Positions 55,236 through 64,000 of a stretch of 64,000 bases of DNA are shown here, one piece after another (the stretch's first letter is position 1; the number at the start of each line of letters is the position of its first letter). This DNA is from Parvibaculum sp. GTDB taxonomy: Bacteria > Pseudomonadota > Alphaproteobacteria > Parvibaculales > Parvibaculaceae. A model generated the notes under the pieces. That model had not been told where the DNA came from, searched no databases, and saw only the letters and a list, made by a program, of their open reading frames with translations. The translations under genes and the position numbers were made by a program. The stretch lies in assembly GCF_031291615.1 (NCBI RefSeq), contig NZ_JARLIS010000035.1; one strand, 5' to 3'.

Positions 55236-55916
55236 ATGGACAGCCTGACTTCAATCCTTGTGCCGATCCACCGCGAGGGGCACCGCTTCGTCATCATCTT
55301 CGCGGCGGTCACGGTCGCGCTCTTTCTGATCTGGCAGCCGCTCGGCTGGGTCGGCGTCGTGCTGACGCTCTGGTGTCTCTATTTCTTCCGCGATCCGGAC
55401 CGGGTGACCCCGCAACGCGAGGGCCTCGTCATCAGCCCCGCCGACGGCGTCGTCAACATGATCGTGGAAGCCTCGCCCCCGCCGGAGCTGGGGCTCGGAG
55501 ACATGCGCCGCACCCGCGTCAGCATCTTCATGAACGTCTTCAACTGCCATGTGAACCGCGCGCCGGTCGCGGGGCGGGTGAAGCGCATCGCCTATCGTCC
55601 CGGCCAGTTTCTGAATGCGAGCCTCGACAAGGCGAGCGACGACAATGAACGCAACGCGATGGTGATCGAGCGCGCCGACGGCCAGGACATCATCGTCGTC
55701 CAGATCGCCGGACTGGTCGCGCGCCGCATCGTCTGCGACGTGGCGGAGGGCAAGGAGCTTCTGGCGGGCGAGCGTTACGGCCTCATCCGTTTCGGCAGCC
55801 GTCTCGACGTTTACCTTCCCGAAGGCGCCATTCCGCTGGTTGCCGTCGGCCAGACGGCGATTGCGGGCGAAACCGTGCTCGCGGACTCGATTTCGGTCGA
55901 ACCGCATCACATATAG
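55236..55916 (+). CDS. psd: phosphatidylserine decarboxylase proenzyme (short alphaproteobacterial type)
   Basis: 226 aa. [13 protein letters not shown], self-cleavage site [13 protein letters not shown]. Confidence 0.9.
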
Positions 55917-55962: not shown

Positions 55963-56811
55963 ATGGCAAATCCGATCCCGCCTTTCGGACCTCGCCGCGA
56001 ACGTCCCTTCGCCAACCGGCGGACGCGGCCTTTCAGCCCCATGCCCATTCGCACAATCATCCCGAACGCGCTCACCGTGCTTGCGCTCTGCGCCGGCCTG
56101 ACCGCCATCCGCTTCGCGCTCGAAGCCCGCTTCGAGGCGGCGGTCGCCGCCATCATCATCGCCTCCGTGTTCGACGCGCTGGACGGCCGCGTGGCGCGCT
56201 TCCTCAAGGGCACGACGCGTTTCGGCGCCGAACTCGACTCGCTGACCGACTTCGTCAATTTCGGCGTCGCGCCCGTGATCGTGCTCTATCTCTGGTCGCT
56301 CAGCCAGATCGGCGGTATCGGCTGGATCGCGGTGCTGGGCTATGCCGTCTGCTGCGCGCTGCGGCTTGCCCGTTTCAATGTTGCGCTCGAAGACCCGGAC
56401 AAGCCAGCCTGGACCGGCAACTACTTTGTCGGCGTCCCGGCCCCCGCCGGCGCCATGCTCGTCATGATCCCGCTCTATCTCACCTTCATCGACGTGCCGG
56501 GCATTCAGGGCCTGCCGCTTCTCGTCGCGCTTCATTGCTTCTTTGTGGCGTTCCTGATGGTGAGCCGCATCCCGACCTTCTCGGGCAAGCGCATTGGCCT
56601 GCGCGTCAAACGCGACATGGTGATGCCGATCCTGCTTCTGGTGGGCTTTGCCGCCGCCGTGATTCTGAACTATCCCTGGGACGCCTTCACCGCGCTCGGC
56701 ATCGGCTATCTGCTGCTCATTCCCGTCGGCGTCATGCGCTATCGCCATCATCAGGCGAGGACGGCGAACGTGGCGGCGACCGTCGAAAGCGACGATCTTT
56801 CCATAGATTGA
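55963..56811 (+). CDS. pssA: CDP-diacylglycerol--serine O-phosphatidyltransferase
   Basis: 282 aa. CDP-alcohol phosphatidyltransferase motif DALDGRVAR...GAELDSLTD. Polytopic. Confidence 0.9.
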   Translation: MANPIPPFGPRRERPFANRRTRPFSPMPIRTIIPNALTVLALCAGLTAIRFALEARFEAAVAAIIIASVFDALDGRVARFLKGTTRFGAELDSLTDFVNFGVAPVIVLYLWSLSQIGGIGWIAVLGYAVCCALRLARFNVALEDPDKPAWTGNYFVGVPAPAGAMLVMIPLYLTFIDVPGIQGLPLLVALHCFFVAFLMVSRIPTFSGKRIGLRVKRDMVMPILLLVGFAAAVILNYPWDAFTALGIGYLLLIPVGVMRYRHHQARTANVAATVESDDLSID

Positions 56812-57061: not shown

Positions 57062-58467
57062 TCAGCGCCCCGGTTCGCCGGTGCGTTTCGCCCCCGAATT
57101 GGGGTGTGCCGTGAAATGAAGCAGGCGAAGTCGTCCGCTTTCGAGGGCGCGGCTCCTTGCGAGCCACAGGTTGCCCTCAGCCATCAACATGGCGGCTGTT
57201 TCCGGCGGAAGTTTGGCGTTTTGCAGGCAAGTATGCAGCCTTTTCCATCCGGCCTGGATCAAGGGGAGATATTCCGCCGTCAGATCCTCGAATGCGTCGA
57301 CCTTGTACTTCAGCTCCGCAAGCATCTCGCCATATTCATCGATGCGCGCGGGCAGGGGATTTCCCGGCTCCGTCGCGCGCCAGGCCGCAAAGGACGGATC
57401 GTTGACGTCGTCCGTGCTGAGGGCGAAGTCGGTAATGACCAATGCGCCGTCCGGCGTCAGCGCCCGATGGAGCTTCGCCAGCAGCTTCTTGCGATTGGCG
57501 ACCGGAAGAGCACCTGCCGCGCGAATATCGCCTGATAGCAGCCGTCCTCGAAGGTCACGCTGTCCACGGATGCGCAGCGCACGGGCGCCGTCTGGCCGAA
57601 GCCGAGCTCGTCGGAAATCGCCTGGCCGGCCGCTGCGAGCTCGGGGTCGGCTTCGATCCCTTCGACGATGACGTGGTGTGTGTTGGCCAGCGCCCGCGCC
57701 GCGCCGCCGAGACCGGCCGACAGATCGAGGCAGGGCTTGCCCGGCGCGAAGTCCATGCCCTGGGCAAGGCGTAGCGCAAACTCTTCGCCGCCCGGCAGGT
57801 GAAAACCGTCGCCCCAGAGCGTCTGCATGATCTGGAAGCGGTCGAGCGGCATGACCTCGGGCGTGCCCGCTTCACCTGGAGAAACTTCCGCCGGGGCCGC
57901 TTCTGCGACCGCTGCCGCTGCGGCGGCCGGAGCGGCCTCGGCCTTCGCCGCGGGCTTTTTGACCGGCGCATCGGCCTTCTTCTCGACTTTGGGTTTCGCG
58001 CCGCCCTGCTTTTCGCGGGCGGCATCGAGAGCGGCCAGCTCCTCGACGCTCACGCCTTCCCACCAGGCGCGAAGCCGCTTCTTGAAATCGGGAAAGGGAC
58101 CGCGCTTCGACGTGCCGGCCGGCTGGCCGGATTTGGCGGGCGATGCGGGAGGTTCGAATTCACCGGCGCCGCCCGGACGCTTGTCGGGATGTTCGACCAG
58201 ATATTTTTCGAGCGCCTGGCGGTGATGGCTGCTGAGTTTGCGCATGCGGCGGAAGCGCGCGATGGCATCGCCCGACATGCGTTCGAGGCAGGACGTGAAG
58301 ACCTGCACCGACATGGCTTCGAGTTCGGCCGTGCCGACTGTCGCCAGATTGATTGTCGCGCTCTCGCCCATGCGTTCCTGCCGCGCCTCCGCTTCCTTCT
58401 GGAAGCCCCGTGTGGCGTCAGCGCCGCTCCGTCCCGCCGGAGGCGAATTGCGCATAACGCCCAACAT
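57062..58467 (-). pseudogene. SAM-dependent methyltransferase (phosphoethanolamine-N-methyltransferase-like domain) interrupted by a 1-nt frame shift
   Basis: Two track ORFs (57457-58467 and 57062-57442) are the halves of one class-I MTase fold. Restoring one base near 57502-57507 gives ...YQAIFARQVLFPVANRKKLLAKLHRALTPDGALVITDFALS... Confidence 0.7.
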
Positions 58468-60952: not shown

Positions 60953-61092
60953 GGTAAACTTGGCAATTTAGTCACACAGCACATTGAAACGCTTGTGAAG
61001 TACTCGTTAACTATATGGTAACGTTTGCAATTCGTTAACGGGTGTGATTCCTTTCGAATATTGAATTGTTTATTGTAGGAGTGGGGCTGGTG
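60953..61092 (+). promoter_or_regulatory. AT-rich intergenic region with repeated GTTAAC/TTGCAATT motifs (promoter/operator region of the PilZ-methyltransferase gene)
   Basis: TCGTTAAC at 61004-61011 and 61032-61039. T(G/T)GCAATT at 60961-60968 and 61024-61031. TTAA-N7-GTAAC at 61007-61022. Near-palindrome TTCGAATATTGAA at 61053-61065. Confidence 0.5.
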
Positions 61093-62544
61093 ATGCGGAC
61101 CTACGAGGAACTGACAGGCGCCGAAGGCCGGCGCATGTTCTACCGGGCAGAGCGCTTCCGGCCGGATGACCTTTTCAAGGAATCCGTGCCCGTCGTGATG
61201 ATCGGCGATGAACGCGCGGCGCTGAAGAACATCAGCATGACCGGCGTTGCCGTGCAGTCGAGCAGGCTCGATGCCTGGGATGCGCGCATCGGCACCGAAA
61301 TGCCCTTCGAGCTGCGCGTCGGCGAGGATCGTCTATACGGCGGCGCTGGCCGCATCCGCCGCGTCGAGCCGCATGGCGCGCGCGCGACCGTCGCGCTCGA
61401 ATTCACCACCGGCTTTCTCGACATTCCCGCGATCGTCACCGATCACGACAACCTCCTTCTCGCCCAGGCGCTGGCCGACCCCGCCTTCGGAACGTCGGAG
61501 GGTATCCTTCCGGAGTTCGCGCAGCTCTGCACCGAAATCGTCAATCTCTTCCGTTCCTACAAGCAGGTCCTCGAGAGCTTCGAGGCGCGGCTGAAGGCGA
61601 CGGGCCGCGAGCGCGAGCAGAAACTTCTCGAAGCCCTCATCGCTTGCGAGGACCGCATCGTCCCGCAGTGGAAGGAACTCTGGTATCGCGGCAGCGACGT
61701 GCTTGAGCCCGTCTGGAGCGACCCGGCGACGCTCGCCCGCCACAAGCGTTATGCCGAACGCGTGCTGACGCCGGACTTCATGCCGGGCGCCGTCATGCGC
61801 CGCTGCTATGAAAAGCCGCTCGGCTATCCCGGCGACTTCCAGATCATGAACTATGTCTATGAGTGGCAGCGCGTCGGCAACACGCCATACGAGAAGCTCC
61901 TTCATCGCATCGGCATCGAGACGGGCGCCTGCGTCGGCACGCGCCTGCGGATGACGCAGAAGATCCTGGGCGAGCGGATCGCGGCAAATCCCGGCGACAA
62001 GGCCATGAACATCGCCAATCTCGGCTGCGGCTCGGCCTATGAAGTCTATGACTATCTGAAGATCGACCGGCTTGCGCGGCCGGTGAATTTCACGCTGATC
62101 GATCAGGACCAGCGCGCGCTCAGCCACGCCTATGAGCATGCCTATCCGGAAGTCGTGCGCCATGCGGGCAGGGCGAAGGTGCAGTGCCTGCAAGCCTCTT
62201 TCGCGCAGCTCCTGAAGGCGGGTGCGCTCTTCCAGACCTTGCCGCCCCAGGACATTCTCTACAGCCTCGGGCTCTTCGACTATCTCTCGCATCGCCGCGC
62301 CCGCGCGCTCGCGCACGACCTCTATGCGCAGGTCGCGCCCGGCGGCAAGCTGATCATCGCCAATGTGAAGCAGGGCCGCGAGACGTGTCAGTGGCCGCTC
62401 GAATTCGTCACCGACTGGAGCCTCATCTATCGCACCGAGGACGACATGCGGGCGATGCTGAAGGGGCTCGATGTCGAGAAGGTGACGATCGAGGAAGACG
62501 CGACCAAATGCGTCTGGGTGATGGTCGCCGACAAGCCGCTCTGA
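61093..62544 (+). CDS. PilZ domain - class I SAM-dependent methyltransferase fusion protein
   Basis: The track start at 61066 is TTG. ATG 61093 has AGGAG upstream. PilZ motifs RRMFYR and NISMTG are 28 residues apart. MTase motifs [27 protein letters not shown]. Confidence 0.75.
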
Positions 62545-62554
62545 GGCTCGAAGG

Positions 62555-64000
62555 TCAGCGCACGTTCCAGCGGATTTCCTCGCTCGGATCGGGAACGACG
62601 AAACGGCTCTTCGGGAAGGTCGCCGTCACGGTCGTGCCTTCGCCGACGACGCTCTCAAGGTCGACCGAACCGCCATGCAGGCTCATGATCTTGCGGACGA
62701 GCGGCAGGCCAAGGCCCGTGCCCTGATGCGTGCGCGACATGGCGTTCTCGACCTGCACGAAAGGTTCGAAGATGCGCGTGATGTCGGATTTCTTGATGCC
62801 GATGCCGCTGTCCTTGACCGTCAGCACCAGATTGCCCGATGCGTCGATGGCGATCTCGATCCAGACATTGCCGCCTTCGGGCGTGAATTTGAGCGCGTTC
62901 GAGGTGAGGTTGATCGCCACCTGATTGAACAGCCGCGGATCGGCGATGATCCAGGGAATGTCGTCGCGCACGCGGAACGAAAGATCGACGCCAAGCTCCG
63001 ACGCGCGCTGGCGGAACATGCGCATGGCCCGGTTGAGCGACTCGACCGGATCAATCGGCTCCTCTTCGAGTTGCAGCCGTCCGGCCTCCGCCTTCGATAT
63101 ATCGAGAATGTCGTTGATGATGCTGAGCAGATGCGTTCCGCTCGAGCGGATGTCGCCCGCATAGTCGGCATATTTCGCCTGGCCGACGGGCCCGAACATC
63201 TGGTTCGCGATGATCTCCGAAAAGCCGATAATGGCGTTGAGCGGCGTCCGCAATTCATGGCTCATGATCGCGAGGAAGTCGTTCTTCGCCCGGTTCGCCG
63301 CTTCCGACCGGCTGAGCAGGCGCTCCGATCGCGTGCGCTCGAAACGCAGCTTCTCATTGTCGACGTAGCTTATCCGGAGCTGATATTCCTGGATGTAATT
63401 GATGAACAGGCTGACGCCGATCGCGAAGACGAGGAAGGCGTTGTTGTTCATCAGGATGATCGGCGGCACCGGATTGACATAGAGCAGCACCGCCTCGTAG
63501 CAGGCGAAGACGAAGAGCGATATGCCGCTTGAATAGAGGCAGCCGAGCCGCCACAGGCAGTTGTTGTAGCCGATGATGATGATGAGGCCGGCATAATAGA
63601 GATAGCTGCCGGGCGCGCCCGCAAGCGCGGTCATGGCGACGACGCAGAGCCCCGGTATCGCCAGCGACAGGGCGAGCACAGATTGATGCTTGTGCGAGAA
63701 CCACGGCATGTAGGAAATGACCACGAGGCCCAGCAACAGCGGCGCGGCGACGACGAACCGGATCGCCCAGGCTTCATAGAGAATGTCCGGGATCACATAG
63801 GTATCGAACAGCGAATAGATGCCGAAAATGATCGCGCCGCCGCCGATCGATATGCGCGTAAGCCCGATCTGGCGATTGAAATTGTCGATGCGGAACGCTT
63901 CCTCAACCTCCGGCTCGCGGAAGTTGAGCGTTAGCAGATTCAGCGCGTAGCGGTTCGGGCTGCCGGCGGAATTCGGCGCAGCATCTCCCTGCGCGCCCCG
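62555..64000 (-). CDS. membrane sensor histidine kinase, orphan; 5' end lies beyond the right edge
   Basis: H-box [46 protein letters not shown]. The track start at 63796 is an internal GTG. The frame stays open to position 64000 (...[39 protein letters not shown]...). Confidence 0.85.

Follow-up and report, generated by a model that had tools for sequence, protein, structure and literature searches.

A PilZ domain fused to a PhcB-family methyltransferase in Parvibaculum, a candidate c-di-GMP-responsive signal synthase paired with a histidine kinase

A gene of Parvibaculum sp. (assembly GCF_031291615.1, contig NZ_JARLIS010000035.1) encodes a 483-residue protein in which an N-terminal domain with the fold of PilZ, a receptor type for the second messenger cyclic di-guanosine monophosphate (c-di-GMP), is joined through a helical lid to a class-I methyltransferase that uses S-adenosylmethionine (SAM). 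We analysed the gene within a stretch of 64,000 nucleotides, referred to here as the window. Its product is best explained as a cytoplasmic SAM-dependent methyltransferase of the family of PhcB, the enzyme that makes a methyl-ester signal in the species complex of Ralstonia solanacearum and works together with the sensor kinase PhcS. What appears to be new is a module of the PhcB/PhcS type that carries a c-di-GMP receptor-type (PilZ) domain. We propose, with a probability of roughly 0.4, that the protein would synthesise, under gating by c-di-GMP, a hydrophobic methyl-ester signal and that the histidine kinase encoded beside it would sense this signal, a reading drawn from the sequence and from analogy with the Ralstonia system. 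Bacteria choose between a solitary and a communal lifestyle mainly through two systems, c-di-GMP and quorum sensing, and the links known between them are mostly transcriptional or indirect. If true, the proposal would provide a direct, post-translational link within one protein from the second messenger to cell-to-cell signalling.

Domain architecture and distribution

The open reading frame exists, and the motifs named by an earlier model reading of the same DNA, made without database searches (the sequence-only reading), all stand in the translation where that reading had put them: RRMFYRAER at residues 13-21, NISMTG at 46-51, LGCGSAYE at 310-317, LIDQD at 335-339, GLFDYL at 393-398 and PGGKLIIAN at 416-424. 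Its quotation of LAPGG, where the sequence has VAPGG, is a trivial misquote. We number the protein from the ATG at 61,093, and an in-frame GTG at 61,090 is as good a start, with a GGAG placed 8 nucleotides upstream of the GTG and 11 nucleotides upstream of the ATG. The identical (100%) database protein is 484 residues long, and the N-terminus MRTYEEL is kept in orthologues. Hydropathy predicts no transmembrane segment in the 483-residue protein, as for a soluble protein. The AlphaFold2 model of the whole protein was of high confidence, with a predicted local distance difference test score (pLDDT) of 90.9 and a predicted template modelling score of 0.79, and runs from an N-terminal barrel through long helices, which extend to around residue 300, to a Rossmann domain.

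Pfam matches in relatives and Foldseek comparisons both show that the combination of PilZ and a class-I SAM methyltransferase is a genuine fusion, and the two domains are not split into separate genes in relatives. The sequence-only reading had assigned roughly the last 250 residues to the methyltransferase; the Rossmann fold is upheld, but the core is confined to residues ~300-483, and residues 130-300 make up a helical linker or lid. The fusion is also the normal architecture of a widespread family and not an accident of one genome, as the distribution of relatives makes clear. The closest of these, 77-87% identical, come from Parvibaculum, with P. sedimenti (86%) and P. lavamentivorans Plav_1118 (80%) among the named orthologues. 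A representative library, clustered at 50% identity, contains 5,538 clusters that match at E<=1e-3 and 1,197 that match at E<=1e-30, and most of its top 150 matches are full-length, at ~480 residues. Members carry the database labels 'PilZ domain-containing', 'class I SAM-dependent methyltransferase' or the KEGG name phcB. The sequence-only reading knew of no characterised example of such a fusion, and the literature yielded none either: a PilZ-methyltransferase fusion is not listed among the PilZ fusions in the survey of bioRxiv 10.1101/814665, and the searchable literature contained neither a characterised one nor a link between PilZ and PhcB.

The N-terminal PilZ domain

The PilZ fold of the N-terminus can be regarded as a secure assignment at the level of the predicted structure, because the Pfam matches of relatives, the AlphaFold model and the Foldseek matches in the PDB all lead to it. 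A search with Pfam PilZ (PF07238) gave a divided answer. The query alone scored 20.8 bits over residues 28-105 (E=5e-4), just under the gathering score of 22.5 bits, but 49 of 80 close relatives matched at E<=0.01, the best of them at 4.7e-8. The model contains a six-stranded barrel, with strands at residues 34-37, 40-47, 51-55, 69-76, 79-94 and 97-104, followed by a helix at 111-128. When the model of residues 1-118 (pLDDT 85) was compared with the PDB using Foldseek, it retrieved PilZ domains almost exclusively. Nearly all of the top 26 matches were of this kind, with a probability of 1.0 and TM-scores of ~0.5-0.57, and they include BcsA, MotI/DgrA, VCA0042, YcgR, PP4397, Alg44, MapZ, PA0012 and MrkH, with BcsA as the best structural match (4p00, E=6e-4). 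At the sequence level, the profile of the domain reached the YcgR PilZ domain in the PDB only at E=0.7.

Both halves of a c-di-GMP binding signature can be read in the query. NISMTG conforms to motif II in its refined definition, [D/N]hSxxG (bioRxiv 10.1101/814665), and R13-R14-M-F-Y-R18 is a textbook RRxxxR. To describe conservation in the wider family we used 126 representatives of clusters at <=50% identity. Motif II is strongly kept: S48 and G51 are invariant in the 80 close relatives, 79 of which have D/N46, and among the representatives D/N46 is found in 113, S48 in 98 (with alanine in a further 16) and G51 in 114. In motif I, R18 is kept in 113 representatives, R21 in 119 and R/K13 in 77, but R14 in only 19, so that the family pattern is R/K13-x4-R18-x2-R21 rather than a strict RxxxR. 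The canonical spacing of RxxxR and (D/N)xSxxG that the sequence-only reading had described is thus true of this protein, and conservation in orthologues, whose absence it had named as a refutation, extends to the second motif but not to the first arginine of the first.

The arginines and motif II tend to be kept or lost together. R18 and R21 are retained with a full [D/N]hSxxG in 93 of the 126 representatives, and if alanine is allowed at the serine position ([D/N]h[S/A]xxG), 104 have both elements, 14 have neither and 8 have one only (Fisher p=3e-12, computed without phylogenetic correction). This is the pattern expected of one ligand site, and the coupling is good but indirect evidence, from sequence, that the two motifs form one. 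Residues 1-16, which include the beginning of the arginine cluster, have a pLDDT below 50, a predicted disorder of the kind expected of a PilZ loop without ligand. Binding of c-di-GMP is plausible but not established, because R14 is unconserved and the Pfam alignment begins only at residue 28; on balance we lean towards the PilZ domain being a c-di-GMP binder.

The lid and the methyltransferase core

The lid carries the signature KPLGYPGD, and K241, D248 and R284 are invariant in the 126 representatives. KPLGY[PA]GDY and R284 are likely to be residues of the substrate site. In addition to LGCGSAYE and LIDQD the core contains the sequence DWSLIYR. G313, E317, D337, D396, N424, W442 and R447 are nearly invariant, and the SAM-binding residues G313, E317 and D337 are retained. 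Foldseek matched the full model to class-I methyltransferases with E-values down to 9e-10. As with PilZ, the Pfam check of this half gave weak matches for the query itself but recognised its relatives, with Methyltransf_12 found in 46 of the 80 and Methyltransf_25 in 22. PDB sequence searches with the full protein found no close relative among solved structures.

Homology to PhcB

According to PMC8578825 and PMC11960443, PhcB makes methyl 3-hydroxymyristate or palmitate, and PhcS senses the product. Our comparison with PhcB was made through proteins of the PhcB clade from a Paraburkholderia plasmid and from Cupriavidus, which served as proxies. A tblastn search of plasmids identified a gene of Paraburkholderia graminis for a 468-residue methyltransferase (L081:4419-5825), followed by a co-directional kinase gene and then by two response regulators. 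The relatives of this protein make up a large Burkholderiales clade (Cupriavidus, Massilia, Paraburkholderia and others) in which the proteins are 463-468 residues long, R22 is invariant and the names given are 'Regulatory protein' or '3-hydroxypalmitic acid methyl ester biosynthesis protein'. The Cupriavidus operon encodes, in order, the methyltransferase, a kinase with a MASE8 domain, a kinase with a receiver (REC) domain and a REC protein. PMC6989110 gives both the phcBSRQ layout and the conservation of PhcB R22 in Ralstonia, Cupriavidus and Paraburkholderia. Since operon layout, invariant R22, lengths and source names agree, we identify the Burkholderiales clade with PhcB.

Aligned with the Paraburkholderia PhcB-type protein using hhalign, the profile of the Parvibaculum family gave a probability of 100% (E=5.8e-48) over 422 columns, spanning residue 43 to the C-terminus. 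BLASTP gave 27% identity over residues 217-456 (E=3e-23). The lid signature is common to the PhcB clade, where it reads KPLGYAGDY. In addition, JGI labels several relatives that are 42-67% identical to the query with the KEGG name phcB (K19620-type), which stands for 3-hydroxypalmitic acid methyl ester biosynthesis protein. The sequence-only reading had put forward the resemblance to PhcB as an analogy only. The hhalign and BLASTP results and the common lid signature make it stronger than this, and in sequence terms the Parvibaculum protein and the PhcB clade are true, full-length, distant homologues. The substrate may differ from that of PhcB, because identity is just ~20-27%.

The N-terminal domains of the two groups differ in the PilZ motifs. 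Proteins of the PhcB clade begin directly at the barrel, without the Arg loop, and read NLQRKS in place of [D/N]hSxxG; Pfam PilZ matches none of 28. Their N-terminal ~95 residues are conserved to an extreme degree (R22, Q29-R30 and NTGLTA do not vary) and align to the PilZ barrel of the Parvibaculum-type family. With searches restricted to the N-domain, hmmsearch gave each of the 28 PhcB N-termini a score of 7.5-16 bits, against a maximum of 6.3 bits in 1,000 shuffles, and hhalign gave a probability of 2% (E=0.028) using 34 sequences and of 51% (E=1.6e-4) using 126. A PDB sequence search with the PhcB N-domain returned nothing useful. These comparisons suggest that the N-domains of the two groups are likely homologous, and that the PhcB-clade domain is likely a decayed PilZ domain without the motifs. 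Because the motifs have been lost there, the PhcB system is no precedent for c-di-GMP control. An adaptive R22C mutation of PhcB, described in PMC6989110 as lying outside 'known functional domains', maps into this N-terminal domain. We considered R22 as an equivalent of R18/R21 and rejected it, PhcB having no Arg loop; R22 aligns near R41, in the strand before the degenerate motif II, and not in the Arg motif.

The partner histidine kinase

A histidine kinase gene converges on the PilZ-methyltransferase gene across a gap of 10 nucleotides. Hydropathy gives the kinase 4-5 transmembrane helices in close succession and no periplasmic domain, and Pfam finds no receiver domain in it. We examined gene neighbourhoods at the best 80 loci, all alphaproteobacterial, of a family present in at least 503 GTDB species genomes. 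Of 77 informative loci, 71 have the kinase gene directly downstream in convergent orientation, and the pairing extends to relatives of only 41-45% identity in other alphaproteobacterial orders, from Rhodospirillales, Sneathiella, Oceanibacterium and others. It is the only universally conserved neighbour, and the pairing is near-obligatory.

No Pfam model, MASE8 included, matched the sensor region of the kinase in any of 10 orthologues. When aligned by hhalign to the MASE8 region of PhcS, the membrane domain showed a weak resemblance, with a probability of 73% (E=3e-5) and the motifs YYAGL, NPxP and NNxFL in register. As an observation in its own right, this membrane domain of ~165 residues is a conserved, unannotated sensor module, and its invariant residues include R13, Q38, Y67, G70, L71, N108, P109, P111 and N118. 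A sub-clade of Parvibaculum without the kinase (L003, L015, L023, L029, L030 and L031, downstream of the match from ~9450) retains the PilZ-methyltransferase and MMPL transporter genes, and in L015 an RNase E gene directly follows the PilZ-methyltransferase gene.

A proposed mechanism and its alternatives

In the mechanism that we propose, the enzyme would act as PhcB does and methylate a hydrophobic precursor, derived from a fatty acid, at its carboxyl group to give a diffusible methyl-ester signal. The signal would leave the cell with the aid of lipid transporters that differ between lineages, in this case the MMPL/HAE3 pump and in other alphaproteobacteria FadL/TodX outer-membrane channels, and would be sensed by the membrane domain of the adjacent kinase, as by PhcS in Ralstonia. 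Unlike PhcB, the protein would have retained a c-di-GMP-competent PilZ site, made up of the Arg loop (R13/R14/R18/R21) and N46-S48-G51. Binding of c-di-GMP would order the Arg loop and shift the barrel, together with its C-terminal helix, relative to the lid, and this shift would switch methyltransferase activity, such that signal output reports cellular c-di-GMP. More tentatively, the same may hold across a large, mostly alphaproteobacterial family in which c-di-GMP bound to PilZ directly switches a kinase-sensed autoinducer, the PhcB N-domain being a decayed PilZ that lost this control.

A number of observations weigh against the proposal. At the PilZ site, the query scores under the Pfam threshold, R14, the first Arg of a canonical RxxxR, varies across the family and the conserved pair R18/R21 is spaced RxxR. 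The Arg cluster also sits ~12 residues ahead of the first long barrel strand, and the Pfam PilZ model aligns only past it. The sole characterised relatives, those of the PhcB clade, are without the PilZ motifs and share low identity with the query. On the side of the kinase, the gene is convergent and not co-transcribed with the methyltransferase, it is missing in one Parvibaculum sub-clade, and no response regulator lies adjacent to it in the window or at the distant loci. The layout of a Phc-type module, with a co-directional MASE8 kinase, PhcR and PhcQ, is not found at the Parvibaculum locus. Pfam does not recognise the sensor domain as MASE8, and the hhalign probability for a MASE8-like domain is only 73%, on transmembrane sequence.

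The points about the PilZ site are relevant to a second explanation, in which the locus does encode a signal synthase of the PhcB type and its kinase, with a PilZ domain that does not serve as a receptor for c-di-GMP. The domain would then be a structural, dimerisation or docking module, as presumably in the PhcB clade, and the conserved Arg and Ser/Gly residues would bind another ligand, for example acyl-phosphopantetheine, the phosphate of acyl-CoA or another nucleotide, or a protein. A motif I that is non-canonical family-wide, with R14 variable, RxxR spacing and a position away from strand 1, would fit this explanation. PhcB-clade proteins function without these motifs, and PilZ-related domains that do not bind are well documented (bioRxiv 10.1101/814665). 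We nevertheless consider it somewhat unlikely, given that motif II is an exact [D/N]hSxxG with S48 and G51 invariant in close relatives, that the two motifs are lost jointly, that the query has a textbook RRxxxR and that PilZ domains with bound c-di-GMP are its closest neighbours in structure.

It is also conceivable, if unlikely, that no signal is made at all. The protein would then be a c-di-GMP-responsive methyltransferase of a membrane or envelope lipid or of a metabolite, with the MMPL transporter moving the product and the kinase monitoring the envelope. The lipid-related surroundings in Parvibaculaceae (psd, pssA, a second putative methyltransferase and MMPL), the lack of a response regulator or of PhcR/PhcQ equivalents nearby and the low identity to PhcB are all in keeping with such a role. 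The synteny of the lipid genes is confined to Parvibaculaceae, however, whereas the kinase pairing is universal. KPLGY[PA]GDY and R284 are held in common with PhcB, and the polytopic domain of the kinase looks like a ligand sensor with PhcS-like motifs; both points count against this role. A protein methyltransferase of the CheR type, acting under c-di-GMP control on the adjacent kinase or another protein, seems very improbable: Pfam CheR matches weakly (E 2e-4 or weaker) in 5 of 80 relatives and 23 of 28 PhcB-clade proteins, a weak PDB sequence match to CheR exists and MapZ-CheR1 offers a precedent, but the similarity is sub-threshold and limited to the generic core that binds SAM; PhcB, a homologue, methylates a small molecule (a fatty acid), and the kinase is without the methylation helices of a methyl-accepting chemotaxis protein.

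A c-di-GMP-gated signal synthase is readily testable, since a single soluble protein, its ligand and a methyl donor would be enough. It would offer the first rationale for the N-terminal domain of PhcB, an enzyme controlling virulence in a major plant pathogen, and a candidate ligand class for the unannotated sensor domain of the histidine kinase. The family is large and occurs in Alphaproteobacteria of sea and soil as well as outside this class, so lipid-like signals and receptors of a new class may be widespread.

Genomic context

Table 1. Positions of the features discussed, in window coordinates.
Feature	Position	Strand	Details and basis
PilZ-linker-methyltransferase gene	61093..62544	+	483 aa from ATG; open reading frame listing
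Motif I candidate RRMFYRAER, aa 13-21	61129..61155	+	Translation; on a predicted disordered loop
PilZ-fold domain (predicted)	61150..61476	+	Barrel aa ~34-104 and C-terminal helix aa 111-128; AlphaFold2, Foldseek, Pfam
PilZ motif II NISMTG ([D/N]hSxxG), aa 46-51	61228..61245	+	Translation, conservation
Helical linker/lid, aa ~129-300	61477..61992	+	Secondary structure of the AlphaFold2 model
Lid signature KPLGYPGD, aa 241-248	61813..61836	+	Family-invariant
Class-I Rossmann SAM methyltransferase core, aa ~301-483	61993..62541	+	Motifs, Foldseek, Pfam in relatives
Methyltransferase motif I LGCGSAYE	62020..62043	+	
Acidic LIDQD	62095..62109	+	
Convergent histidine kinase, 413 aa	62555..63796	-	Pfam, hydropathy
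Kinase membrane sensor domain, aa 1-165	63302..63796	-	Polytopic
Kinase HisKA, aa 170-239 (His at 180), and HATPase_c, aa 286-397			Pfam
MMPL/HAE3-type RND transporter, 764 aa	58658..60952	+	Upstream; Pfam MMPL E=3.7e-34, NCBIfam HAE3 E=3.4e-38
AT-rich element with repeated GTTAAC/TTTGYAA units	61005..61051	.	Promoter region; 40-90 nt before the start

The sequence-only reading had placed the gene between an MMPL-type lipid exporter and a sensor kinase. Both neighbours are as it described, but the upstream one is not conserved beyond Parvibaculaceae: the MMPL gene is syntenic only in this family, and a single other locus (L068) has it elsewhere. The MMPL/HAE3 transporter is a candidate lineage-specific exporter. 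A gene for an outer-membrane channel of the FadL/TodX type stands beside the kinase in 7 of 20 loci from outside Parvibaculaceae (L065:11063-12454, L069:5565-6968, L071:11136-12482, L072:10878-12248, L074:7487-8836, L078:4593-6155 and L079:10940-12346), and the two channels that were scanned, from L065 and L079, matched Pfam Toluene_X at E=1e-92 to 1e-99. Transporters of hydrophobic compounds (MMPL, FadL) are recurrent, lineage-specific neighbours. The AT-rich element in the promoter region reads CGTTAAC-TATATG-GTAACG-TTTGCAATTC-GTTAACG...TGTGATTCC, and its consensus is kept across Parvibaculum loci; from its sequence it may be an operator for some regulator.

Diverging from the MMPL gene is a gene for a 336-residue protein (57457-58467, minus strand) with an Ala/Pro/Lys-rich linker and a weak, apparently short match to Methyltransf_25 at its C-terminus. 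It is adjoined by an open reading frame of 126 residues (57062-57442, minus strand) with no Pfam match. Both genes are syntenic with the block of MMPL, PilZ-methyltransferase and kinase genes throughout Parvibaculaceae. Further upstream, after an ABC transporter gene, two open reading frames on the plus strand (55236-55916 and 55963-56811) encode, by sequence appearance, a putative phosphatidylserine decarboxylase and a putative CDP-alcohol phosphatidyltransferase of the PssA type, and the synteny of these two is confined to Parvibaculum. A motif scan of the window found no GGDEF, EAL or HD-GYP genes; a 'GGEEF' in the 336-residue methyltransferase-like open reading frame was set aside as a chance match outside any GGDEF domain.

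The plasmid collection contained no full-length relative of the query. An N-terminally truncated copy (L082:4001-4993, corresponding to residues 160-482 at 39% identity) is present on plasmid pPSE7367.01 of Pseudanabaena sp. PCC 7367, where it abuts a recombinase and a Tn3 transposase and converges on a HAMP histidine kinase gene, which is followed by a response regulator.

Comparison with known systems

In the cellulose synthase BcsA and in Alg44 a PilZ barrel is joined to an enzyme or to a component of secretion, and c-di-GMP gates catalysis. The Parvibaculum protein differs in that its PilZ domain is N-terminal, its partner is a methyltransferase and its motif I deviates family-wide. Control of a SAM methyltransferase by c-di-GMP through PilZ also has a counterpart in Pseudomonas aeruginosa, where the c-di-GMP-loaded PilZ protein MapZ (PA4608) binds and inhibits the methyltransferase CheR1 in trans. 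The C-terminal helix of the MapZ PilZ domain mediates the contact with CheR1, and in our model the counterpart of this helix appears to run directly into the methyltransferase lid; the structures 5xly and 5y4r are among the Foldseek matches of the N-domain. Whereas MapZ acts in trans on a chemoreceptor methyltransferase, the Parvibaculum PilZ domain is fused in cis to what is presumably a small-molecule methyltransferase, and the resemblance observed between the methyltransferase parts of the two systems is that of the class-I fold.

The closest parallel is PhcB/PhcS of the Ralstonia solanacearum species complex. Proteins of the PhcB clade differ from the Parvibaculum protein, to which they are ~20-27% identical, in having neither the Arg loop nor [D/N]hSxxG nor a Pfam PilZ match, and in Ralstonia and Cupriavidus the kinase gene points the same way as the methyltransferase gene, with PhcR and PhcQ after it, whereas in Parvibaculum it is convergent with no regulator nearby. 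PhcB and the Parvibaculum protein nevertheless have the same overall length and architecture, with a beta-rich N-terminal domain of ~100 residues, a lid and a class-I core. In both systems the methyltransferase gene adjoins that of a polytopic membrane kinase with HisKA and HATPase domains, and the membrane domains of the kinases have motifs of the YYAGL, NPxP and NNxFL type in common.

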